Origin: a virus
Direction: 5' to 3' (one strand)
Length of the DNA stretch: 64,000 bases
Virus record (IMG/VR): IMGVR_UViG_3300008952_000019
Span: 1 to 64,000 of that record
In this document: positions 912-20,925 of the stretch, piece after piece
Position numbering within the stretch: position 1 is the stretch's first letter
Layout: each line of letters starts with the position of its first letter
The notes under the pieces: model-generated
Database searches by the model: none
Told to the model about the DNA's origin: nothing
Seen by the model: the letters and a program-made list of their open reading frames with translations, nothing else
Translations under genes and position numbers: made by a program

Positions 912-1384
912 TTAATGGCGTAGGAGCCATTTTTCTTTCCCTACCTACCAGTAGAATATTACTCCAAATGCGATCAAAAAATGTTAGTCATTCAGGCACT
1001 TGGGCATTTTGGGGAGGTAAAGCAGAAAAAGGCGAACAACCTTTAGAAACATTACACCGAGAATTAGACGAAGAAATGGGGACAAATATTCCTAATTACT
1101 TTAATATAGTTCCATTACATGTATTCGAATCAAAAAACGGTTTTAATTACAAAACATTTATAGTAACAGTATTTAGAGAATTTGTACCTGAATTAAATGG
1201 CGAATCTAGTGGCTATTGTTGGGTAGATATAGGTTCGTGGCCTAAGCCATTACATAGTGGTGCTAAATTAGTCTTTTACGATAAATCGTCTATAGATAAA
1301 ATAAAGACAGTAGCAACTAATTTAAAAGATAAACGTCCCGATGCAAAGTGGATGGGTAAACAACAAAAACCTATAAAAGTTTAG
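908..1384 (+). CDS. NUDIX hydrolase
   Basis: Nudix box GGKAEKGEQPLETLHRELDEEMG (Gx5Ex7REUxEExG). Start set at ATG 908, which overlaps the upstream stop as ATGA and has GGAG 9 nt upstream. Confidence 0.9.
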   Translation: MINGVGAIFLSLPTSRILLQMRSKNVSHSGTWAFWGGKAEKGEQPLETLHRELDEEMGTNIPNYFNIVPLHVFESKNGFNYKTFIVTVFREFVPELNGESSGYCWVDIGSWPKPLHSGAKLVFYDKSSIDKIKTVATNLKDKRPDAKWMGKQQKPIKV

Positions 1385-2120
1385 GCCGTCGTATTTTAAG
1401 AAAAAGATCATACATTTTTTGTAAAGGTAATCCGGGTCGTAATGATTTTAAAGTTGTTGTTGCCTTGGCATAATCTTCTAATTGTGTAGTAAGAGGTATT
1501 TGTTTAATAGACACATTTTTATCTGTAACAAATCTTACGTAACACAACGGATCTCCCCTTTTAATATCGATAACTGCATTATCTGTAACAATTTCATAAG
1601 CAAAATCCAATGGACGAACCCAACTATAGATATTAAATGCTCCACATATACTTCTTAAATATTTAAAATAAGGTAGTTTATGCATGTGTAAAAAAGGAGA
1701 TACTTGTTCCATATGCAAATCTTTTTCGTCTGTTACAAATAATTGGGGGAAAGAAAAGCTAACCAATGGATTATTATTTTTATTTAATTTCAATCTACCA
1801 TTAAATTTTCCATCCGGTGTGTCATCTGCTTTATAATCTCCGCTCCATTCGTGTTTTCTTTCATCAAACACTATATATTGACTTGTAATATTTTCTTTGT
1901 TTACAGTTATTTTTGCATCTGTATTGCTTACTTTTTTATATGCAAATTTAACATGCAAGGGAGATCGTAAAACATACCAATTTTTTAAATAACTAGTAAA
2001 TGCAGGGCAAAATCTAAACGCAGCATCTATATCTTTATATACGTCTGTATATAATGATTCTGGTTCAGTATATGCAAGTGCAGTTTCAGCTCTTGCTGGT
2101 GTCCATCCTACTTCAATCAT
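1371..2120 (-). CDS. Conserved phage protein, DUF6065-like / dUTPase-like fold
   Basis: FRFCPAF...WYVLRSP near the N-terminus and IKRGDPLCYVRF near the C-terminus. Similar layout to 36145..36873. Confidence 0.5.
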   Translation of the reverse strand: MIEVGWTPARAETALAYTEPESLYTDVYKDIDAAFRFCPAFTSYLKNWYVLRSPLHVKFAYKKVSNTDAKITVNKENITSQYIVFDERKHEWSGDYKADDTPDGKFNGRLKLNKNNNPLVSFSFPQLFVTDEKDLHMEQVSPFLHMHKLPYFKYLRSICGAFNIYSWVRPLDFAYEIVTDNAVIDIKRGDPLCYVRFVTDKNVSIKQIPLTTQLEDYAKATTTLKSLRPGLPLQKMYDLFLKIRRPKLL

Positions 2121-2871
2121 CTTGTGGTTTTAATTCTACTTCAAATTCAGATTCTAAAAAACAAACTTGGGCTATTCTAGGATAATCTTTAAATGCATTA
2201 TCTGTGTGATATGCTGCGTGAAATAAATATCCAGGGTATAATATGCATCTATTATATGCCATTGGTATTACTTCTTCTAAAGCCCAATACCTATCCCAAT
2301 CATCATGATAATAAACAGATCCATCTTCTGCAGGCATAAATGCTTCGGTACCAATAACGTGATCTTCTAATTCATTATCTTCATCTACTAATCTAATATC
2401 ATTTGCATATTTTGATCTATATATACCAGTTCCGCCGTTGCATTCTTCATTTGTATTAAAAAATATAGACGCCGCTACGGTATTTAATCCGTCTGTATGT
2501 ACTCTATTTCCTACTGCATTTACTGGTTGATCTTCTATCCATTGAAAACAGTTTGATATAAAAGGATATGTTTTATCTACTAATGTAAAATCATAATAAT
2601 GTGATACGATGCTATTAATGACATAAACAAAAGGTGGTTCATCAAAAAATGACATCGAATGCCTACAGTCGTAATATTGCTTAAAATTTAATGTATCGGG
2701 AGTATGTTTCCATATGGGCACAGGAGAAGAAAGAATAAGATCTTTTATATTATCAGGTTTTTTATAAAAATTATCTATAATTAATATAAGAGAATCATCT
2801 GCTAGTTTAACTTTTTGAATATTTAATTCTTCGTTAATTGCAAATAATTCTAATGGTTTAAATCGTTTCAT
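2113..2871 (-). CDS. 2OG-Fe(II) oxygenase-like protein (DUF6445 family)
   Basis: IIDNFYKKPD, HTD (HxD), GGTGIYR, YNRCILYPGYLFH and R-x-x-Q-x-x-F motifs. Likely start is MKRFKP at 2871. Confidence 0.75.
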   Translation of the reverse strand: MKRFKPLELFAINEELNIQKVKLADDSLILIIDNFYKKPDNIKDLILSSPVPIWKHTPDTLNFKQYYDCRHSMSFFDEPPFVYVINSIVSHYYDFTLVDKTYPFISNCFQWIEDQPVNAVGNRVHTDGLNTVAASIFFNTNEECNGGTGIYRSKYANDIRLVDEDNELEDHVIGTEAFMPAEDGSVYYHDDWDRYWALEEVIPMAYNRCILYPGYLFHAAYHTDNAFKDYPRIAQVCFLESEFEVELKPQDD

Positions 2872-3535
2872 TTTTTTCTTTTTCTTCTTTAGTCGCGGAT
2901 CCCCATACATCACAACCAATGTTAAATGTTATACCATATTTTGTTTCTTTTTTTATAATTTGATTTGCTTGATGATATAACCAACCTGGCCACAGTAATA
3001 CAAGACCTTCTCTACTCTCATAAGTCATTACTTCTTGTTTATATTGATTTAAACTATATAAAGTTAATGAAGAAACATCATTTAGATAATATATACCTGA
3101 TATAAAACTATTTGCATGATTATGTATATCATGATAATTATATTGTTCTGTTATATTAACCCAACAACTCTGTATCCATACTTCTTTTCGATGATCTAGT
3201 CCTTGTGTTGCTCCTTCTTTATGCATCATTTGTTGATTAAGACCATTGTCTGCTAGTAACTCATCTGCATAAAATTGTGCTCGTTTTAAGATCTCTGATA
3301 TTAATAAAGAAAATTTAGAATATACTGGATTTTCTTCTTCATCTTTAAGACGAATATGAATATCATCTATTGTATAGTATGATGTATAACCAAATGGAAA
3401 TTTTCTAGGACAAGTTGCCCTTCCTTCTATATCTAATTCTTTTATTTCTTCACATGCTTTAATTAATTCAGAGTTGTCTATATCATCTATATAATCTTTA
3501 AAAATAGTTATAGGAAATATATCTTCAAGTGGCAT
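2858..3535 (-). CDS. Putative 2OG-Fe(II) oxygenase (TIGR02466-like)
   Basis: IFPITIF start, WVN....YHDIHNH.NS.ISGIYY, EGLVLLWPGWLYH, ITFNI. Confidence 0.8.
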   Translation of the reverse strand: MPLEDIFPITIFKDYIDDIDNSELIKACEEIKELDIEGRATCPRKFPFGYTSYYTIDDIHIRLKDEEENPVYSKFSLLISEILKRAQFYADELLADNGLNQQMMHKEGATQGLDHRKEVWIQSCWVNITEQYNYHDIHNHANSFISGIYYLNDVSSLTLYSLNQYKQEVMTYESREGLVLLWPGWLYHQANQIIKKETKYGITFNIGCDVWGSATKEEKEKNETI

Positions 3536-3935
3536 CGTAGTATGCTGACATTAATGTTATTTTATTATCATCGTCAAATTCTATTATTAATTGAGGATGT
3601 TTAAGATTACTACTAGTATCAAAATCTTTTTCGGCTATTAACTTATTACCTATTTCTGTTATTGTGGCACTCTCCGGAATCCCATTTTCGTCTTCTTCTG
3701 GTGGTTCGTCGGGACCATTTTCGGGTTTTGCTACATACTTTCCTCTGTTAGTTCGTAAAGCATTAGTAGAAAATTTTGTTACATCTTGTCCAGAAACATG
3801 AATCTGGCCTTCACTAAAATTAACTGTCCTATCTTTAAAATAATTTAAAAATTCTTCATTTTCGTCTTCAGTAAAATTACCCGCACCTTTATTTAGTAAT
3901 ATCCTGACTCTCTTGAAAATCTGTTTCTTGGTCAT
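3525..3935 (-). CDS. Hypothetical protein
   Basis: 136-aa ORF tiled between its neighbours, with an acidic PDEPPEEDE patch and no recognised motif. Confidence 0.55.
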   Translation of the reverse strand: MTKKQIFKRVRILLNKGAGNFTEDENEEFLNYFKDRTVNFSEGQIHVSGQDVTKFSTNALRTNRGKYVAKPENGPDEPPEEDENGIPESATITEIGNKLIAEKDFDTSSNLKHPQLIIEFDDDNKITLMSAYYDAT

Positions 3936-4668
3936 ATCCTATTAACTCCCATGCATCTCTATATTTTTCTGAAGGCAATTCGTCAACATTAAATACTTCT
4001 GAATATGCCCATTTATTTTTTTCTGGTATGTAAGATAATTTAGCAATTAATTCTTCTAATTCTATTCTTAAATTTACTGGTGTTATAATTATAACAGAAT
4101 TATCTTGTTTTTTCAATAAAATTCTTTTATTTGCATATTTTAATTTAAACATTTCTTCTTTTTTACTATAACTATTTTCTCCACTTATAGAATATATTAT
4201 TTTTTGAGATTGCTGATGCCAACCATAAAAATAATTATAATTTTCATTTTTATCTAATATATCAGGTTGTGGAATAAATTTATTATTCCACGCCGAAGTG
4301 TTTAGAATAAAAGAAACATTAAAACCACTCAATACTCTAGTAGATATAAAAGGCCCAGCTCCTAATTCACACCCTAAAACTTCGGTTTCAGGATCTATAT
4401 TATCTAAAGCATCGTATGTTTTTTGAAATATAGGGTCATGTGATTTATAAGGTAAAACATTTGGCCAATATCTATCTATATCGGCTATTGTTTCTACTTC
4501 AGTTAAATCTACTTTAAAATCTTTAAAATATTTTTGTAATTCAATTAATCTATCATTATCTTCTTCTTTTATTTCTATATCTAATTTTTCTATTTCTTTA
4601 TTTAAAGAAGACTGTAAATTTTTTTGAAATATATTTTTTGCTTTTTCTATATTAATTTGTATAGGCAT
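3889..4668 (-). CDS. Putative fibre-assembly/chaperone-like protein
   Basis: N-terminal IQINIEKAKNIF helix and C-terminal VIIITP...VDELPSEKYRDAW module, both recalled from small phage fibre-associated proteins. Confidence 0.4.
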   Translation of the reverse strand: MPIQINIEKAKNIFQKNLQSSLNKEIEKLDIEIKEEDNDRLIELQKYFKDFKVDLTEVETIADIDRYWPNVLPYKSHDPIFQKTYDALDNIDPETEVLGCELGAGPFISTRVLSGFNVSFILNTSAWNNKFIPQPDILDKNENYNYFYGWHQQSQKIIYSISGENSYSKKEEMFKLKYANKRILLKKQDNSVIIITPVNLRIELEELIAKLSYIPEKNKWAYSEVFNVDELPSEKYRDAWELIGYDQETDFQESQDITK

Positions 4669-4669
4669 T

Positions 4670-7225
4670 TTACCACCATTTAATAATAGTTACATGATTT
4701 GTGGTAACAGGCGAAGTTCCGCCCGGGGACGGAGCACTAGCATCTATAATACCTGTCATAGAAGCTCTAACAAGATCTCCTGCTTGATTTCTTTGTAATA
4801 TGTTTGCTCTTGTATAATATAATGTATGATTATCCCATGCATGAGGTAAAGGATAATTAGGAAATACAGTTGCCCAGGTACCTTCAAAATATTCGTTGTT
4901 CCAATATTTAGTTTGTAAAGTACTAGTTGCTGAAGTTTCTTTTGTTTGCGATACTGTCATTGGATCAAAATCTGCATCTGTACCGGTACCAAGATCTACA
5001 TTAGTGGCATCATTTTCTAATCGCCAAGTATCAACATCTCCTTGTTTATCAGTAAGGGCCCATGTCCAGTACGCTACTTCTTTTCTATGGGAATTATTGT
5101 CAAAAATTTCAGTTTCGGCTCTATCTTCGTATCTAGTACCATATCTATATTCGTATCTATATTCGTATCTATACTCTTGTCGTGCCGAAACTCTATATGT
5201 ATATTCTGATCGAGTAGTACCTCTTGCCACATATCTACCTTGAGCTCTTCGAGACAATTCGTGTCGAGATCTCCACCACATCCATCCGTCTCTCCATCTA
5301 AACCAACCATCGACATATCTGTATGCGTCTCGATAAGCATAACGAGTTTCAGCTCGAGCAGTTGCACTATATCTATACTCTAGTCTAGCGGTGGCTCTAG
5401 CAGTAGCCCTAGCGGCATTTCTTTGTATTAATCGTTGTGATTGCCTTTCTGTATGTCTAGATACACTTGTTTGATAACTAATGTCATTAACATCTACTGT
5501 TGTATCTAGCTGTGTATACGAAAACAAAGGAGTCGAAGTTAGTTCTGCATCTACTTTGTCAGATTCTGCTTTGAATTTGTCATATGTCATATCTTCAATA
5601 TAATCATTAACATCTATGGCATCTAATATTAACCAATCAGTAGTTATTCCGCGAGTAGTTCGCTGAGACATTAAATTTATGTATGCTTTGTATTCTTCTA
5701 TAAACGATTTTACACCATCGGATGTAATCCTAGTTTTATTATCTAAAGTAAATGTGTAATTAGAATATGTATAGGGCAATTTATTGAAACCGTATACTTC
5801 GCCTAACTCTATTTTGTCTAATGTAGTATCTAAAAAACTACCTAATTCTTCTGCTACTGTTTTAAAATCTACAGTGGTTCCGCCTGTTCGGTAATCAACT
5901 ACCTCTTCAACGTCAGCAACAAAATGTATACTAGGCGTAAGCGGTCCTATATCATATTTAATTTTACCTATATGTTGTACCGTTCCATCAGTGTACAAAT
6001 GATCTTCCCAATTACCATGCGGTGTTGCAGCATTTTCGGTTGAACCATTTGTTCTCCAACAATGCCCGTACTTACCATACGAATCATCCGAATATAAACC
6101 ATCATAATCGTTAAATTCAGAAGTGCTTGAACCTGAAGTACAAGGATTCATAGCACCTAAACCTGTAATCGGAGGTTCAGGCTGATTAGACGATTGGGTA
6201 TCTGCGTGAACTGTTAATCCTACACGAATATTTTGAGGAAGAGAATGAGGTATCTGAATTAACATATAACCATTTGCATTCTTAAATTTTATGCCTGTTT
6301 TCCAAAAATAATTTTTACCTGTAAAAGAACCTGACCCCGGATCGGAGTTATGAAAAGTAGCACCATTTAATCTACTTAATACTTCAGGATAGTTACCAGG
6401 GCTTGTATTTGCTACCGGATCCACAAAATGATTTTGGGATGCAGTAAATTCTGTTGAGTATGCTGGAGAATTGGTAGTTTTAACTCCAGCATTCCATTGT
6501 ATAATTTGTCTCCCCCCTATATTACCTTCTACTGTTCTAAACACCCAGCGATAATTATAACCAACATTAGGTGTATGATTATTGAACACATTATAAGGAT
6601 AAACGCTACGAGATTGTGCTTGTTGCGTTTCTGACGAAAATGCTGCATATCCTCCCAACCATCCTCCCCAATATCCAGATTTAGTATATTTTATATCTGT
6701 CATAGGATGTAAAGTACTACCTTGCCTAAAACCAGTATTAGAAAAAAATAATACAATTTTTTCTGGATTTAAGTTTTCGATTTCCCACGTATATTGTTGA
6801 CCTGAAGAATGTTTAATAAAAAAACCATCATTGAAATCAAAAGTACAATGTACCTCTCCTTGCCATGTTTTTTCGCTACCGGAACCTATATCGATAGTTT
6901 TTTCTACAATCGGTATTGGGTTTTCGTCATCTATGACATTTCCGTTATACAATCGAACTTTCATTCGAGATTGAGTCCAGCCACTATTTTGATCATATAA
7001 ACCAACTACTTCAATATGTTCGGATCTAACATACCATGTTAATTTTGATAACATACTATCGTTAGGAGTACCAAAAAATGCTTGCCTAAATTTATGATTA
7101 TCATAAAAATCTAATTGATAAAAAGATGCTGGATCCCATTGTTGACTGTTAGTTTGAGTGTTAGGATCAAAATAATCTTTGTAAGAAATATGAACTCTTT
7201 CTGCTTGTCGAATTTCTCTAGACAT
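4670..7225 (-). CDS. Virion-associated protein (851 aa) with an Arg/Tyr/Trp periodic insert
   Basis: Long ORF coupled to the upstream fibre gene by a TAATG overlap. The region at about 5111-5458 shows R-x-x-x periodicity. Confidence 0.6.
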   Translation of the reverse strand: MSREIRQAERVHISYKDYFDPNTQTNSQQWDPASFYQLDFYDNHKFRQAFFGTPNDSMLSKLTWYVRSEHIEVVGLYDQNSGWTQSRMKVRLYNGNVIDDENPIPIVEKTIDIGSGSEKTWQGEVHCTFDFNDGFFIKHSSGQQYTWEIENLNPEKIVLFFSNTGFRQGSTLHPMTDIKYTKSGYWGGWLGGYAAFSSETQQAQSRSVYPYNVFNNHTPNVGYNYRWVFRTVEGNIGGRQIIQWNAGVKTTNSPAYSTEFTASQNHFVDPVANTSPGNYPEVLSRLNGATFHNSDPGSGSFTGKNYFWKTGIKFKNANGYMLIQIPHSLPQNIRVGLTVHADTQSSNQPEPPITGLGAMNPCTSGSSTSEFNDYDGLYSDDSYGKYGHCWRTNGSTENAATPHGNWEDHLYTDGTVQHIGKIKYDIGPLTPSIHFVADVEEVVDYRTGGTTVDFKTVAEELGSFLDTTLDKIELGEVYGFNKLPYTYSNYTFTLDNKTRITSDGVKSFIEEYKAYINLMSQRTTRGITTDWLILDAIDVNDYIEDMTYDKFKAESDKVDAELTSTPLFSYTQLDTTVDVNDISYQTSVSRHTERQSQRLIQRNAARATARATARLEYRYSATARAETRYAYRDAYRYVDGWFRWRDGWMWWRSRHELSRRAQGRYVARGTTRSEYTYRVSARQEYRYEYRYEYRYGTRYEDRAETEIFDNNSHRKEVAYWTWALTDKQGDVDTWRLENDATNVDLGTGTDADFDPMTVSQTKETSATSTLQTKYWNNEYFEGTWATVFPNYPLPHAWDNHTLYYTRANILQRNQAGDLVRASMTGIIDASAPSPGGTSPVTTNHVTIIKWW
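5142..5176. repeat. 12-bp tandem repeat (tatctatattcg, about 2.9 copies) encoding EYRYEYRYEYRY
   Basis: Read directly: 5142-5153 and 5154-5165 are identical, followed by an imperfect partial third copy. Confidence 0.9.
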
Positions 7226-9111
7226 TAAATATACTCAAGTTGAAATGTTTGAAAATTAGTTGCCATTTCTGTGCATGTATTTGTCCAACTATTTATTGTA
7301 GGCTGCACCATTTTTATTCTAGCTAAAACTCTAATAGGTGCTCCAGATGATGCTACATCTGAATACAATATACCTTTTACAGAATTAACTCCAGAAGATG
7401 GAAATATAGAAATTGGTTGTAATCCACCTTCATCTTTAACATATTCTGCAGAAATTGCTAACTTAACTGTTTCATTTGCCAAATCTTGGAGCCATCCATA
7501 AACATAAAGTGTCATATCTTCAGCATTTGTATATCCTAATACTTGACCTGCAGGTATTGCTAATGAAAACGAAGATGTTATTTCTATGACGTGTATTTTA
7601 CCTTTGGTAGCATCGGGATCTCTAAATATTATTCTTGCAGGACTTAATACAGATAAAATTGCATCTTGATAATTTCTTAATTCAAGTGTGTATATTCCAG
7701 AAGATAATGTTTCTACAAATGAATAATTTTCTTTAGCATTAGGCCATAATCCGCCTAACCATTCTACGTCTTCTGTTGATGTAGGAGGTGGAGACCATAT
7801 AAAACCTGTGCCTGCCGGATTTTGTGTTAAATAATGTCCTGGACTTCCGGCATTATCTATTATTACTTCATTAATACCAACAGAATCATTCTGCATCATA
7901 GATAAAGAAACATAATCATTACCTAAAATAACTGTATTACTACTTAAATCTAATGTATTTGCTAATTTAGGTACAGTAATAGAACCATTTAATATTTGAG
8001 TACCTGTTATATTATTAGCCGGAAGAGTAAAATTAGTATTTGTAATTGTAAATGCTGTTGCTCCATTAATTGAAGTTAATATATCAGGTGCATTTAATAC
8101 AGTTGTTATACCAGTAAAAGAAAGTTGTCGTTCTAATTTATCTGCGGTTATTGAATAATCTTGTAATTTGTCTGTGCCAATACTATCATCTGCAAATGTT
8201 GTATTAGACATTGTACCAGTAATCAATCCACTTAAAACAAAATTAGAATAGTCTACTTGTGTAAGTTGAAAATTGCCCGAGCCGTCTGACTCTAAAAAGT
8301 AATTTTGACTATGACCAGGATCAGAACTATTTTGTATTTTTAATTCATTATATCCAACACTTGCGGCACCCGGTGCGTCATTTGCAAACTGTAAATTAAC
8401 AGGAGTCGAACCTTTAAGAAATTCAAATCTATCTAATACCTCATTCCATTGAATTTTTGCTACATCATTGGTCGGGCCCCTGTTAATATCTATTCCGGCA
8501 ACTCCTGCTGAAACTCCAGGACCAGTTTCGTCATCATTAATAACTATTACATTATCTTTAACAAGTAAATTTTGAGTATCAACTTCAGTGGTTGTTCCTT
8601 CTGTTTTTAAATTACCCGTTACAGTAATATTTGTAACTGTCAAATCTGTAGGAAATGTTATTGTTGCCGATCCTGATAAATCTAATGTTGTAGATAATTT
8701 AGGTCCTGTTATAGTACCATTTGCAATATCACTATCTGTTATTGTTAAATTTGTAATCATATCGCTTGTTATTGTATTTGAAGCAATATGATTTGCAGGT
8801 ATAGGACCTGTAATAGCACTATAATTTATGGGATACGCACCAGGAGCTTCCCAAGATAATGCTCCTGTACTAGAAACTTGCAAAAATTTATTTGCATCAC
8901 CTGATGTAAAAGTTAAATTTAATTCTCTACTAGTAATACTATTTTCAGGTAATGTAAGAGTATGAGATGATATATCAAGAGTTGTATGTATTTTATCTGA
9001 TGTAATAGAACCAGTTGCTAAATCTACCGATTGAATAGAAGCATCGTTTATTTTGGCACCTGTTACAGCACTATCTGCTAATAAATTTGTAGTTATTTTA
9101 GTTAATGGCAT
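7225..9111 (-). CDS. Tail fibre-like structural protein
   Basis: Repeats of the type I.D.SIT..KL, a VKDNVIVIN...AGIDINRG motif, and Thr/Ser/Asn-rich composition. Start MPLTK at 9111 (TAATG overlap, GGAGG upstream). Confidence 0.7.
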   Translation of the reverse strand: MPLTKITTNLLADSAVTGAKINDASIQSVDLATGSITSDKIHTTLDISSHTLTLPENSITSRELNLTFTSGDANKFLQVSSTGALSWEAPGAYPINYSAITGPIPANHIASNTITSDMITNLTITDSDIANGTITGPKLSTTLDLSGSATITFPTDLTVTNITVTGNLKTEGTTTEVDTQNLLVKDNVIVINDDETGPGVSAGVAGIDINRGPTNDVAKIQWNEVLDRFEFLKGSTPVNLQFANDAPGAASVGYNELKIQNSSDPGHSQNYFLESDGSGNFQLTQVDYSNFVLSGLITGTMSNTTFADDSIGTDKLQDYSITADKLERQLSFTGITTVLNAPDILTSINGATAFTITNTNFTLPANNITGTQILNGSITVPKLANTLDLSSNTVILGNDYVSLSMMQNDSVGINEVIIDNAGSPGHYLTQNPAGTGFIWSPPPTSTEDVEWLGGLWPNAKENYSFVETLSSGIYTLELRNYQDAILSVLSPARIIFRDPDATKGKIHVIEITSSFSLAIPAGQVLGYTNAEDMTLYVYGWLQDLANETVKLAISAEYVKDEGGLQPISIFPSSGVNSVKGILYSDVASSGAPIRVLARIKMVQPTINSWTNTCTEMATNFQTFQLEYI

Positions 9112-9782
9112 TATCCAAATACCCTCCAAGTACTTCCATTATATACTAGACCAAAATTTAAAACAGCGGTATTGACAACTAAGTCGTCAGCAACATCCAT
9201 AATTGTACTACCATTTCTACTTACAGTTAATGGATAATCTTGAAAATGTCCGCCTGCATCAACAACTCTGATAGTATCGTTTTGGTTAGGTGAAGCAGGT
9301 AATGTCATTGTAACTTGTCCATTTGTTGTATCCACTTGAACTGATTGCCCTGCATATGCCGTAAATGGGGAATCAGTATCGCTTTTATAATCAAATCCAC
9401 CGGGATCAAACGAAGTAAAACTTAAACCGCCTGCGCCATTTGTTGTTAATGCTTGACCTATTGTACCATCAGTGACATTTAATTCATCTATTCCTATTGT
9501 ATTTGCACTTACTGTTGTAATATTAATAGGCGATGCTTCAATATACTTTACTAGTACTCTAGATCCGGACGGCGGTGCTTCAGTAAATACAACTTTTGTT
9601 CCGGCAGTATTGATTCCATATGCCGCAGTAGGTTCTTGTGTTAGACCGTCTATAGAAACAAATAGTTGTTTTTGATCTACTACTGTAAATGTTAAAGTAA
9701 ATTCAGTATCACTGCCAGTACCTGTAAAAATATCTTGTTGTACTTCGGCAGTATCTATTTGCTTCTTCTTTAAAAATTTCAT
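9111..9782 (-). CDS. Virion structural/adaptor protein
   Basis: FTGTGSDTEFTL...VSIDGLTQEP...FTEAPP domain plus the C-terminal VDT...TLPASP...RNG.TI...LVYNGSTWRVF module. Confidence 0.7.
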   Translation of the reverse strand: MKFLKKKQIDTAEVQQDIFTGTGSDTEFTLTFTVVDQKQLFVSIDGLTQEPTAAYGINTAGTKVVFTEAPPSGSRVLVKYIEASPINITTVSANTIGIDELNVTDGTIGQALTTNGAGGLSFTSFDPGGFDYKSDTDSPFTAYAGQSVQVDTTNGQVTMTLPASPNQNDTIRVVDAGGHFQDYPLTVSRNGSTIMDVADDLVVNTAVLNFGLVYNGSTWRVFG

Positions 9783-9790
9783 AATTTATC

Positions 9791-11182
9791 TTACGCCGGT
9801 TGGTCCCTTACTGTTATAATTCCTGTCATAGAAGCATTAACATTATGTATATATGAATATGCACCTGGTACCAGTGGTACAGTCCATTTTAATTCGCCCG
9901 GATCAGCAATAGTTGGATTATTATTTCCTGCTGCTAAACCATGCGAGGTATCTAAAGGAACTAGGCCTGGATCTTTTAATGTAAACCCTATACTTTCAGG
10001 GCTCATTACATGAAAATATACTATATCACCTGCATCTATAGTAATAGAAGGATTTTCTCCATTAACAGGTCCTAATCTATCAATACCATCTATAACAAAT
10101 GCATCAGTGCCAATTCCAAAAACATGAAAATGAAATTCTCGTGCTTCCCATGTTGCACTCCCAGCAGAACCATGAAAAGATTTATTATGGTCCCAGCCTA
10201 CTTCTAATGGAGTTCGTCCCCATAAATTATTTGCTACACAAACATATAAGAACCATTTTCCTGCATGATTTCCTACTTTAATTTCCCCTATTTTACCTTT
10301 TTTATTATGTTCTGGTGCCTTATCACCTTCCACATATTTGCCCCCAGCAGGTTCTTCAATATTTTCTTGAGGTATTGTACCATCGCCTGTTTCGGCTGTA
10401 ATTACATTTTCTTGTAAAGTAAAAGAATATTTATCCCATTGAGTATGACCGCCAAATAATCTTTCAGCAGAATTTATAGGTGAAAGAAGAGCTCGTTGCC
10501 TATAATTACTTTGTTGGGTAGAGATATCACCTATAAAATCTCTATAATATTTAAAATCATACCAATATTCTATTCGAGGATTACTATTATCTTTTAAAGA
10601 TATTCTAGCACCATATGTTCGCGAACCAAAAAAATCTTTAAATTCCGAATATGCACCTGATGTTGCAGTACCGTATTCCCATGGATGAGCTCCCATAATT
10701 TCAATGTCACCCGGTGATACTGCTGACTCAGGAATAGCCTGTATATATCTAGGAACAACAACTGCCGAAAGGATTGAATAAACTTGTGTTCCTTGGGCAG
10801 GTTGCGTATGAGGTATTGTTATATTCTTATACCCTTTATACCAACCTCCTCCTGGTAAAGCATTACAAGCCTCTTTATCTAGAATTGATTCATCAGCAAG
10901 CCAATGGCCACCTGCATTTAGACAATTAGTTTTGGTCGTAATATAATTATCATTTGTATCTTTAAGTACACTTCCGCCGTCTAATGCATCCATACAAAAA
11001 TAACATCCACCTGCTTTCTTTCCTTCTTTGTTGTCTCCTATCCATATCGAACTGTCACTTAAAAATAAATGTCTAACTTTTTTTTCTGCCGAACCCAAAT
11101 CATATACTTCAGTTGTTTCAGGTAAAATGTGTCCTGTTTGTGTACCTGATGATTGTCTAAGATTTTTTAAATCTTGTGCCAT
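9791..11182 (-). CDS. Fibre-like structural protein with Cys mini-repeats and a degenerate cupredoxin-like C-terminus
   Basis: HILP....YDLGSAEKK.RHLFLS fibre motif; C...GG.W repeats; C-terminal NPSITI..GD.V.F...WTVP...YSY......MTGIITV. Confidence 0.6.
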   Translation of the reverse strand: MAQDLKNLRQSSGTQTGHILPETTEVYDLGSAEKKVRHLFLSDSSIWIGDNKEGKKAGGCYFCMDALDGGSVLKDTNDNYITTKTNCLNAGGHWLADESILDKEACNALPGGGWYKGYKNITIPHTQPAQGTQVYSILSAVVVPRYIQAIPESAVSPGDIEIMGAHPWEYGTATSGAYSEFKDFFGSRTYGARISLKDNSNPRIEYWYDFKYYRDFIGDISTQQSNYRQRALLSPINSAERLFGGHTQWDKYSFTLQENVITAETGDGTIPQENIEEPAGGKYVEGDKAPEHNKKGKIGEIKVGNHAGKWFLYVCVANNLWGRTPLEVGWDHNKSFHGSAGSATWEAREFHFHVFGIGTDAFVIDGIDRLGPVNGENPSITIDAGDIVYFHVMSPESIGFTLKDPGLVPLDTSHGLAAGNNNPTIADPGELKWTVPLVPGAYSYIHNVNASMTGIITVRDQPA

Positions 11183-19206: not shown

Positions 19207-20925
19207 ATGGAAAAGAAAAAAATCATCATCATCGGCGGGGGTACCGCTGGTGCTAGTGCAGCGGTATTTCTTCAGGCTAAATTAGGAAAAGCATGTGACA
19301 TAGAAGTATTAACATCAAAAAACATACCTATTGTCGGAGTCGGTGAAGCAACCGTAGGTAACATTAATCAATTTTTAGAAGCATGTGATTTAGAACCTGA
19401 AAAAATTTGTTTAGATGATGCAAGGGGCTCTATTAAATATTCTGTTCATTGTAAAAATTGGTACAAAGACAATCATTCTTATTTTACTCCAATCGGTTTA
19501 TTTGCTATGGAATATCATGATTTTTATACATTTGCTCGGCCTATAAAAGAATATTGGGAAAGTTGGTGCGGTTTAAATTTAGGACTTAACAGTAAAGCTC
19601 CATTTTTAAAACATGAATATTGGCATACAAATATACCTAAGGTATGGCGAGAATATGCATATAATATTGATGCAAGTTTATTAGGAAAAAAATTATTAGA
19701 TGTAGCAATTGAAAGAGGGGCAATAATAAATGATGTTAAAATTAGCGAAGTCAAAATTATAGATACTGATAAAATAGATTACTTGATCACAGATGATGGT
19801 AAAAAAATAGAAGGTGATTTTTTTGTTGATTGTAGTGGGTTTAAACGACTAATCCCTAATGCATGTGGTTATACTCCTAAAAAATTTAATGAGGATAATA
19901 AAAATAATAGAGCATGGGCAACAAGAATAGATTATGTAGATAGAACCGACGAATTATCCTATTTAAGTTGTGTTGAATGTCAAGCAATGGATGCAGGCTG
20001 GCGTTGGCAAATAGGTTTACGTGATAGAATAGGAACTGGTTATGTGTTTTGTACTGATTATATTTCAGAAGAAGATGCACTACAAGAATTTAAAGATAGT
20101 TTTGAAGGCGATAGAATTAAAGATGATCAGTGCCAATTAATTAAGTTTAACACAGAATGCTATGAAAAGCAAGCAGGTACTAACTGGATTACATGTGGTT
20201 TATCTGCAGGATTTGTAGAACCATTAGAAAGTACAAGTATATTTTTTATGCATAACAATTTAATGGCATTCTTGTCATTAATAAAACAAAATAGATTACC
20301 TAAAGATATTCAAATGTTAGGTATGGAAACATGGGATGTTAGTGACGAACCTGTTCATTATTTCTTTGATTGGAATAACGAAAAAATAGATTTATATAAT
20401 ACATATGCAACAGACACATTTAAATCTACAGTAAATTATGTAGGAGCTCATTACGCATTTAATAAAAATAATAAATCCAAATACTGGGACGATTGGGCAG
20501 AAAAAAGAGAAAAATATGTTAGTATCGGAAGTGAAGTAATGAATTACAAACAACAACATTTATTCTTTTCTAGGCCTGCATATAGCATATTAGCTGCAGG
20601 TAATAATATGGGGACGGAAATAGAAGGATGGGATTTATCAAAAGTATTTGTAAGTAAACGACAAGAAAGTGCTTGGGAATCCGGGCAACTTAAAACCGAA
20701 AGGGAAATTCTAGAAGACAGAACACCTAAGGAATATTTATATGTACTTAGAAATTATTTAGGTAGAATGACTCATCGAACATGGTTAAACGATATATTTA
20801 GTGACCACGCATATGATATTATAGATCAATACAAATGGTTAGATCATTATGAAGAATTAAATAAAGAAGAGTTATTATCATCTAAAAATTATATTCATAA
20901 TATGACGACAGATAATTTATCTTAA
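19207..20925 (+). CDS. Flavin-dependent tryptophan halogenase family protein (PrnA/RebH-like)
   Basis: IIIGGGTAG (FAD binding), VGVGEAT, Lys in GSIKYS at the position of the catalytic Lys, FFVDCSGF, GWRWQIG (WxWxIP variant), GLSAGFVEPLESTS. RBS AAGGA precedes the ATG. Confidence 0.9.
   Translation: MEKKKIIIIGGGTAGASAAVFLQAKLGKACDIEVLTSKNIPIVGVGEATVGNINQFLEACDLEPEKICLDDARGSIKYSVHCKNWYKDNHSYFTPIGLFAMEYHDFYTFARPIKEYWESWCGLNLGLNSKAPFLKHEYWHTNIPKVWREYAYNIDASLLGKKLLDVAIERGAIINDVKISEVKIIDTDKIDYLITDDGKKIEGDFFVDCSGFKRLIPNACGYTPKKFNEDNKNNRAWATRIDYVDRTDELSYLSCVECQAMDAGWRWQIGLRDRIGTGYVFCTDYISEEDALQEFKDSFEGDRIKDDQCQLIKFNTECYEKQAGTNWITCGLSAGFVEPLESTSIFFMHNNLMAFLSLIKQNRLPKDIQMLGMETWDVSDEPVHYFFDWNNEKIDLYNTYATDTFKSTVNYVGAHYAFNKNNKSKYWDDWAEKREKYVSIGSEVMNYKQQHLFFSRPAYSILAAGNNMGTEIEGWDLSKVFVSKRQESAWESGQLKTEREILEDRTPKEYLYVLRNYLGRMTHRTWLNDIFSDHAYDIIDQYKWLDHYEELNKEELLSSKNYIHNMTTDNLS

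Follow-up and report, generated by a model that had tools for sequence, protein, structure and literature searches.

Extended antiparallel β-structures without a conventional hydrophobic core are known from OspA-type sheets, which are held by cross-strand side-chain ladders, charge pairs and aromatic-over-small packing; cross-strand aromatic ladders are found in the single-layer β-sheet of Borrelia OspA and in the engineered 'peptide self-assembly mimics'. The arms of HU and IHF and the hairpin extensions of ribosomal proteins are Arg-rich two-stranded ribbons of 10–20 residues, which bind polyanions and belong to DNA- or RNA-binding folds. The tip of the bacteriophage T4 long tail fibre is the gp37 D11 needle (PDB entry 2XGF), in a homotrimer whose strands intertwine. 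D11 is an insertion into domain D10 of gp37, with stem arms at residues 882–931 and 960–1009 and a tip at residues 932–959 that binds lipopolysaccharide (LPS) and OmpC (PMC6957217). Here, we describe an Arg ladder encoded in a viral stretch of 64,000 nucleotides (the window), which covers positions 1–64,000 of the 91-kb IMG/VR virus record IMGVR_UViG_3300008952_000019 (estimated completeness 42%). The ladder lies at window positions 5111–5458 on the minus strand, which map exactly to residues 590–705 of an 851-aa open reading frame (ORF) at 4670–7225.

We favour, with moderate confidence, a reading in which residues 590–708 form a very long two-stranded antiparallel β-hairpin, inserted in a protein of a phage tail-fibre module, with its Arg residues and charge held constant and the rest evolving fast. 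Within this reading, the long β-hairpin itself is well supported by the residue patterns described below.

Arg periodicity and mirror symmetry of the ladder

The ladder-bearing protein, P0001, can be divided into the following parts:

4670..7225, minus strand: P0001, ladder-bearing ORF of 851 aa, an orphan in a structural module
5459..7225, minus strand: N-terminal body, residues 1–589; acidic, net charge −25; 95% identical to the P0002 allele
5111..5458, minus strand: Arg ladder, a hypervariable insert, residues 590–705; net charge +14, Lys absent
5309..5458, minus strand: ascending N arm, residues 590–639; Arg at each fourth residue, Thr/Glu/Ser on the Arg face, Ala/Leu/Tyr opposite
5354..5374, minus strand: six-residue phase slip of the N arm, R618 to R624
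5252..5308, minus strand: tip, residues 640–658; 5 Trp in the window allele, conserved G647-W648, putative turn centre at residue 649
5111..5251, minus strand: descending C arm, residues 659–705; Arg at each fourth residue, Glu on the Arg face, Tyr/Phe opposite; predicted pairing extends to F708
5192..5212, minus strand: six-residue phase slip of the C arm, R672 to R678, mirror of the N-arm slip
5120..5173, no strand assigned: 12-bp DNA tandem repeat coding for an RYEY run, which is kept in all alleles
4673..5110, minus strand: C-terminal domain, residues 706–851; 75–86% identity among lineages, last 40 residues almost invariant

The 116-aa ladder contains 28 Arg, 16 Tyr, 15 Ala, 10 Glu, 10 Thr, 5 Trp and 2 His. 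Nineteen of its 27 Arg–Arg gaps are of exactly four residues: along the chain, the gaps read 4 (seven times), 6 and 4 (three times), then 7, 2, 7, 2, 5 and 1 at the tip, and finally 4 (three times), 6 and 4 (six times). The lag-4 autocorrelation of Arg is 19, compared with 6.4 ± 2.0 in composition-preserving shuffles, and the observed value was reached in 0 of 20,000. Both slips are placed symmetrically, each being centred 27 residues from the mirror centre. Counts and shuffles therefore confirm the ladder as an earlier note on this DNA had described it: mirror-symmetric, with 28 Arg at four-residue spacing and one six-residue slip per arm.

At the DNA level, the 12-bp tandem repeat at 5120–5173 was confirmed with Tandem Repeats Finder (period 12, 4.5 copies, 79% matches), and a second 12-bp tandem repeat lies at 5384–5415. 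The first of these had been taken as a sign of recent length change by whole tetrads. The repeat is indeed present, but the RYEY run occurs in all alleles and is hence old and shared. No inverted DNA repeat was found in the ladder region. Because direct repeats cannot yield a mirror pattern, the mirror-image arrangement of the protein is not a product of the direct DNA repeats. On the opposite strand, a 115-aa ORF (4896–5243, plus) contains a SYLY repeat that is a mirror artefact of the RYEY codons, and we do not regard it as a gene candidate.

Five clearly distinct ladder alleles (116, 119, 119, 120 and 121 residues), together with close variants, represent three lineages. In all five, the Arg pattern is palindromic about a conserved Gly-Trp, with a mirror sum i + j equal to the segment length between the conserved flanks (116, 119, 120 or 121). 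The P0002 lineage has a distinct slip pattern (...4, 6, 2, 6, 4...), which is likewise mirrored in both arms. Permuting the order of the gaps in one arm matched the observed symmetry in 9–16 of 20,000 trials for P0002, P0003 and P0012 (p ~5e-4); the window allele gave a modest 783 of 20,000, and P0011 gave 1129 of 20,000. Homologue lengths had been expected to vary by multiples of four, paired between the arms. Instead, they differ by 3–5 residues, and what is paired is the slip pattern rather than tetrad insertions or deletions.

Within the arms, all Arg gaps are even (2, 4, 6 or 8), and odd gaps are confined to the tip. Even gaps place the Arg residues on one face of a strand, while the same gaps would scatter them around a helix. 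The hydrophobic moment at 180 degrees is raised in 10 of 10 arms (z 3.3–6.5), compared with z values of −1.0 to 2.1 at 100 degrees. In the N arm, the position two after Arg is Thr, Glu, Ile or Ser, and the intervening residues are Ala, Leu or Tyr; the corresponding positions in the C arm are Glu or Thr, with Tyr, Phe or Ala in between. An AlphaFold monomer model had been proposed as a check. AlphaFold2 assigned long strands across the segment, but the predicted local distance difference test (pLDDT) scores, 47.5 for residues 570–730 and 29.8 for the whole protein, are too low for more than weak agreement. Foldseek searches with the segment model (pLDDT 47) returned only insignificant rows (E at least 0.005, template modelling (TM) score 0.1–0.2).

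Proposed cross-arm pairing and covariation

We scored 49 antiparallel registers for the size and charge complementarity of partner residues. A single register, i + j = L + 2 (where L is the segment length), was outstanding in all alleles. Here, the standard deviation (SD) of the summed partner volumes is 33–45, against a mean of 57–62 for the 48 other registers, which corresponds to z values of −4.5 to −5.0 in four alleles and −2.2 in P0012. Each allele forms 7–9 Arg:Asp/Glu pairs and 11–15 aromatic:small pairs at L + 2, with almost no aromatic:aromatic pairs. When the non-Arg residues of the C arm were shuffled within their faces, the L + 2 score was reached in 0–2 of 5000 cases (47 of 5000 for P0012). 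The registers L − 2 and L + 6 share the repeat phase of L + 2 and score much worse, so that the signal must come from the individual pairs and not just from the period. The register i + j = L, which sets Arg opposite Arg, had initially appeared best by the coincidence of Arg residues and was dropped in favour of L + 2 on the grounds of size and charge complementarity and of covariation.

Across alleles, the volumes of L + 2 partners are negatively correlated (r = −0.60; permutation mean 0, SD 0.095; 0 of 2000 permutations as low), while the other registers give r values between −0.24 and +0.20. Partner swaps of the types Y:A to A:Y, Y:G to G:Y and D:Y to Y:A recur at positions 27, 29, 33, 39, 41, 43, 45 and 47 from the base. 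Covarying pairs fall at every second residue, as is the case for cross-strand neighbours in a sheet and unlike a helical hairpin. Together, the mirrored Arg phase, the even-only spacings, the 180-degree moment, the single outstanding register and the covariation uphold the earlier proposal of a long hairpin with antiparallel cross-arm pairing, and its arms would be of about 50–57 residues.

Divergence of the ladder and its relatives

Searches of 5.8 and 1.8 billion proteins recovered relatives of P0001 in only two protein clusters, those of P0002 (86% identity to P0001) and P0003 (64%), both from marine metagenomes including Tara; they also returned a single N-terminal fragment and a single sequence that matched the C-terminal domain weakly. 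P0018, a 129-aa metagenomic fragment ending in Trp-Trp, is a distant relative of the C-terminal domain alone (E 1.4e-5 to residues 741–824). Scans of viral, metagenome and genome contigs yielded the loci L002, L003 and L004, which belong to the same two clusters, and no relative in prokaryote genomes. A tblastn search against 50,697 phage records gave no match. P0001 itself has no sequence match in Pfam, PHROG or the PDB, the last searched with a profile of 11 sequences. Scans with flank and C-terminal motifs returned only the known contig or chance matches. A degenerate DNA scan for the RYEY run picked out three contigs, of which two were chance out-of-frame matches in unrelated genes (a giant-virus metagenome-assembled genome and a 37-kb contig) and the third was the known relative. 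In ESM Atlas, no usable match to the ladder was found, and the whole protein drew only weak matches to viral clusters without a name; literature searches on the motif and on Arg-ladder hairpins found nothing relevant.

At every depth of comparison, the ladder diverges faster than its flanks and is the fastest-evolving part of the protein. The identities are as follows, where the ranges for the ladder span its three parts (N arm, tip and C arm):

Window versus P0002: N-terminal 589 aa, 95%; ladder, 20–47%; C-terminal domain, 85%
Within the P0003 cluster: N-terminal 589 aa, 95–97%; ladder, 57–80%; C-terminal domain, 84–86%
P0002 versus P0008: N-terminal 589 aa, 99.5%; ladder, 85–94%; C-terminal domain, 99.3%

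The tip is the least conserved stretch, with 20–25% identity between the three main lineages. Compared with L003, the rate of synonymous change (dS) is 0.11 in the flanks and 1.37 in the ladder, where the non-synonymous rate (dN) is 0.55; these estimates are based on three loci. Because dS and dN are both raised in the ladder, the pattern points to recombinational exchange, or to slippage that scrambles the alignment, rather than to point-wise positive selection alone. By protein identity to L003, a mosaic boundary is placed inside the ladder gene, since the upstream genes (7225–11182) are 93–96% identical and the five or six downstream genes (1371–4668) only 52–59%. In a comparison of window positions 1371–11182 with both L003 and L004, DNA identity was again about 98% over the final 40 codons of this gene.

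Within this divergence, the Arg positions are retained, and 9 of the 16 all-Arg columns use differing codons. Each ladder contains 0–1 Lys in all alleles despite the AT-rich genome, and the net charge of the ladder is +14 or +15 in every allele, in an otherwise acidic protein (about −25 for the N-terminal body and −5 to −8 for the remainder). The differing codons, the near-absence of Lys and the constant charge suggest selection on Arg and on charge.

At the turn, only Gly-Trp is conserved across alleles. The tips outside the window allele are of the Gly-Gly-Trp-Gly-Pro-Phe type with 1–3 Trp, so that a Trp-rich tip, as first suggested from the window allele, is not a conserved feature. The window tip (5260–5308, residues 639–652) contains an apparent old duplication of seven residues (DGWFRWR / DGWMWWR; 14 of 21 bases identical by eye), which may explain its 5 Trp compared with 1–3 in the relatives. 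In the P0002 lineage, two Cys flank the Gly-Trp tip in all six full-length members (ladder positions 57 and 70, counted from the first Arg and separated by 12 residues; L003:4001–6568), and no other lineage has a Cys in the ladder. This pair could be a lineage-specific closure of the tip loop by a disulfide.

Genomic setting

The 91-kb record has a GC content of 29–41% and carries nearly all of its genes on the minus strand. The ladder gene is translationally coupled to an upstream gene for a 634-aa fibre-like protein and is followed downstream by a 259-aa gene, a 136-aa gene and two 2-oxoglutarate (2OG)-Fe(II)-oxygenase-like genes:

7225..9129, minus strand: upstream 634-aa fibre-like protein; match to phrog_892, tail fiber (E 3e-6); stop overlapping with the ladder-gene start
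3889..4668, minus strand: downstream 259-aa protein without an assigned function; translationally coupled; syntenic in both related loci, with 53–58% identity there
2113–3535: two 2OG-Fe(II)-oxygenase-like ORFs; PF13759 (E 3e-15) and DUF6445 (E 1e-8)

This gene order, with the oxygenase-like genes closely downstream of the ladder, is kept in both related loci; only the 136-aa gene is unmatched in L003. PHROG matches around the ladder gene are to tail-fibre, baseplate-wedge and virion-structural proteins, and a conserved neighbour gene is about 43% identical to proteins of Synechococcus and Prochlorococcus myophages. By sequence similarity, the record is related to T4-like cyanophages and the ladder gene lies inside a tail-fibre module. 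Since the neighbour matches myophages of Synechococcus and Prochlorococcus, the host is probably a marine picocyanobacterium.

No second Arg ladder was found in any other ORF of the 91-kb record. A 572-aa protein at 19207–20925, encoded by one of the few plus-strand genes in the structural block, matches a tryptophan-halogenase PHROG (E 5e-82). That the ladder might be modified by the neighbouring oxygenases or by the tryptophan halogenase is speculation.

Proposed structure and function

In our model, the ladder would form one β-ribbon with about 58 pairs of residues, flanked by the N-terminal body on one side and by the C-terminal domain on the other. The register is set from the base, such that residue a of the window allele would pair with residue 1298 − a, from R590:F708 up to a turn near residues 648–650. 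The polar face would be a checkerboard, with Arg at each fourth residue on both strands, staggered by two; Arg of the N arm would lie opposite Glu of the C arm, and Arg of the C arm opposite Thr, Ser or Ala of the N arm. On the other face, Tyr or Phe of one strand would pack over Ala, Gly or Ser of the partner strand, matched in size. The Arg/Tyr cation–π ladder envisaged in the earlier note does not fit this arrangement, in which Arg and Tyr occupy opposite faces and the partners of Arg are Glu, Asp, Thr or Ser. The approximately 58 pairs, taken at roughly 3.3 Å each, would give the extended ribbon a length of 15–20 nm. As the chain would go up one arm and return along the other, its N-terminal body and C-terminal domain would have to share the base, with the variable tip farthest from them.

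The Arg positions and the +14 charge would be fixed in this ribbon, while the remainder, the tip loop foremost, would evolve fast and be swapped by recombination. The ribbon may project distally from a fibre and touch anionic polymers of the host envelope with its cationic surface and variable tip, and such contact would make it a determinant of host range. Four features fit host contact: the position in a fibre module; the combination of a conserved N-terminus with a variable distal part and a mosaic boundary; the conserved positive charge, carried by Arg only; and the hypervariable tip. The ladder is probably the distal, host-contacting part of a fibre, in the form of a thin, positively charged projection.

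Several points weigh against this model. A two-stranded ribbon of such length with both faces exposed would be unusual and may need oligomerisation or a partner, and the pLDDT values given above (29.8 for the whole protein, 47.5 for the segment) are low. The covariation rests on five or six distinct alleles from three lineages, the counts of which are not phylogenetically independent, and the elevated dS of the ladder may stem in part from misaligned repetitive sequence. Moreover, because the Cys pair of the P0002 lineage is off the L + 2 register, the tip may form a loop and not a strict hairpin.

How marine cyanophage-like myoviruses recognise their hosts is poorly understood, and their fibre-region genes are mostly orphans. 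A residue-level pairing map of a 116-residue element from sequence alone is rare for proteins and is the protein analogue of covariation in RNA stems. Here, the map points to a cationic, hypervariable projection located at a recombination boundary, and it is in such places that host range is decided. If the ribbon is as long and thin as proposed, its Arg/Glu checkerboards and Tyr-over-Ala/Gly packing would be a natural answer to the problem of stabilising an extended two-stranded sheet, and as such of interest to protein designers.

Alternative explanations

The hairpins of three chains may bundle into a six-stranded trimeric needle like the D11 stem of T4 gp37, with the Tyr/Ala face buried on the axis and the Arg/Glu face outside. 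We regard this as a tentative refinement of the hairpin model and not as a competitor to it. T4 gp37 D11 has the same up-and-down topology and arm length, the ladder gene lies among fibre genes, and an aromatic/small face would be better off buried. However, no sequence, Pfam or PDB similarity to gp37 was found, and the ladder has no HxH metal sites, motifs which in gp37 are interleaved between the arms and not mirrored. Furthermore, the Tyr:Ala and Tyr:Gly matching inside one hairpin is already self-complementary, as in single-layer sheets.

Slightly less probable, in our view, is the opposite form of the hairpin model, a free-standing, core-less two-stranded β-ribbon of nearly 20 nm. It would be a natural single-layer sheet, in which an invariant Arg skeleton and a constant charge of +14 carry a freely diversifying surface and tip. 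If true, this would be a new kind of phage receptor-binding scaffold that diversifies without a diversity-generating retroelement (DGR), and a ready template for the design of long rigid β-ribbons.

The ladder could also be a low-complexity, largely disordered cationic linker without defined pairing, in which the four-residue period is a by-product of 12-bp repeat expansion. The tandem repeats at 5120–5173 and 5384–5415, the low AlphaFold confidence and the rapid divergence would be expected of such a linker. We nevertheless consider it unlikely: a mirror-image protein pattern is impossible from direct repeats, with no inverted DNA repeat in the region, and the mirrored slips are kept across alleles of differing length. 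Neither the register-specific complementarity with its compensatory swaps nor the retention of Arg through synonymous changes agrees with a disordered chain.

An even lower probability attaches to the stem hairpin of an oligomeric β-barrel pore, as in aerolysin-type or binary-toxin stems, or to a membrane-active R/W peptide. With the low-confidence segment model as query, Foldseek ranked pore stems (aerolysin, lysenin and CDTb) and phage tail knobs highest, and the window allele does combine an alternating amphipathic hairpin with an R/W-rich tip. Yet these rows are insignificant (best E 5e-3, TM ~0.1) and derive from a model of low quality. In length, the arms amount to four to five membrane thicknesses, and they carry Arg from end to end (net +14); the other alleles lack a Trp-rich tip, and a Pfam search detected no pore-toxin domain.

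An antiparallel α-helical hairpin (coiled coil) with an Arg stripe is, if anything, more improbable still. In the window allele, Ala, Arg, Leu and Gln abound in the first half of the N arm, and a helix would display Arg spaced at i and i + 4 along one side. However, the two- and six-residue slips would turn this stripe by about 200 degrees, and the moment at 100 degrees is not significant. Other alleles have arms in which Gly, Thr, Tyr and Pro are abundant, and the covarying partners fall at each second residue and not at heptad positions.

Finally, although a hypervariable patch in a phage fibre-region protein would suit a variable region written by a DGR, this explanation is the least credible of all, as neither a reverse transcriptase (PF00078) nor a second DNA copy of the ladder was found in the 91-kb record (about 42% complete, so that an element far from the ladder may lie in the missing part), the AGA codons at the invariant positions are rich in adenine and would be struck by DGR mutagenesis, and dS is raised as well.

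Comparison with known systems

Like the arms of HU and IHF, the ladder would be an Arg-rich two-stranded ribbon, but it lies in a fibre module, and no nucleic-acid-binding domain was found with Pfam. With the stems of β-pore-forming toxins (aerolysin, lysenin, CDTb/iota Ib), which come closest in shape to the low-confidence model, it would share a long amphipathic two-stranded hairpin. Unlike these stems, the ladder is highly charged over the whole length of its arms and has no accompanying toxin domains, and the shape matches are insignificant.

The OspA sheet and the ladder, as modelled here, are alike in being core-less, extended antiparallel sheets with cross-strand ladders. The OspA sheet is short, three-stranded and capped by globular domains, whereas the ladder would comprise two strands and about 58 pairs, with a four-residue Arg period and natural hypervariability.

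Judged by architecture, the closest known analogue is domain D11 of T4 gp37, although the ladder does not belong to the same family. No sequence relationship between gp37 and P0001 could be detected, and no similarity to the gp37/gp12 collar or to the gp37 C-terminus was found with Pfam, PHROG or the PDB profile. Between residues 882 and 1009, gp37 has seven HxH motifs, interleaved between the arms and holding seven Fe ions, which were not mirrored when we applied the same mirror test to them as a control. The ladder has no HxH motifs; in our model it shows instead the Arg/Glu checkerboard and the packing of Tyr over Ala, and its phase is strictly mirrored. What the two elements would share is the layout, which for the ladder is deduced from sequence: an out-and-back insertion whose arms, each about 50 residues long, carry a small and variable tip at their distal end. 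Both are also encoded in a fibre gene cluster, and in gp37 it is the variable distal part that sets the host range.

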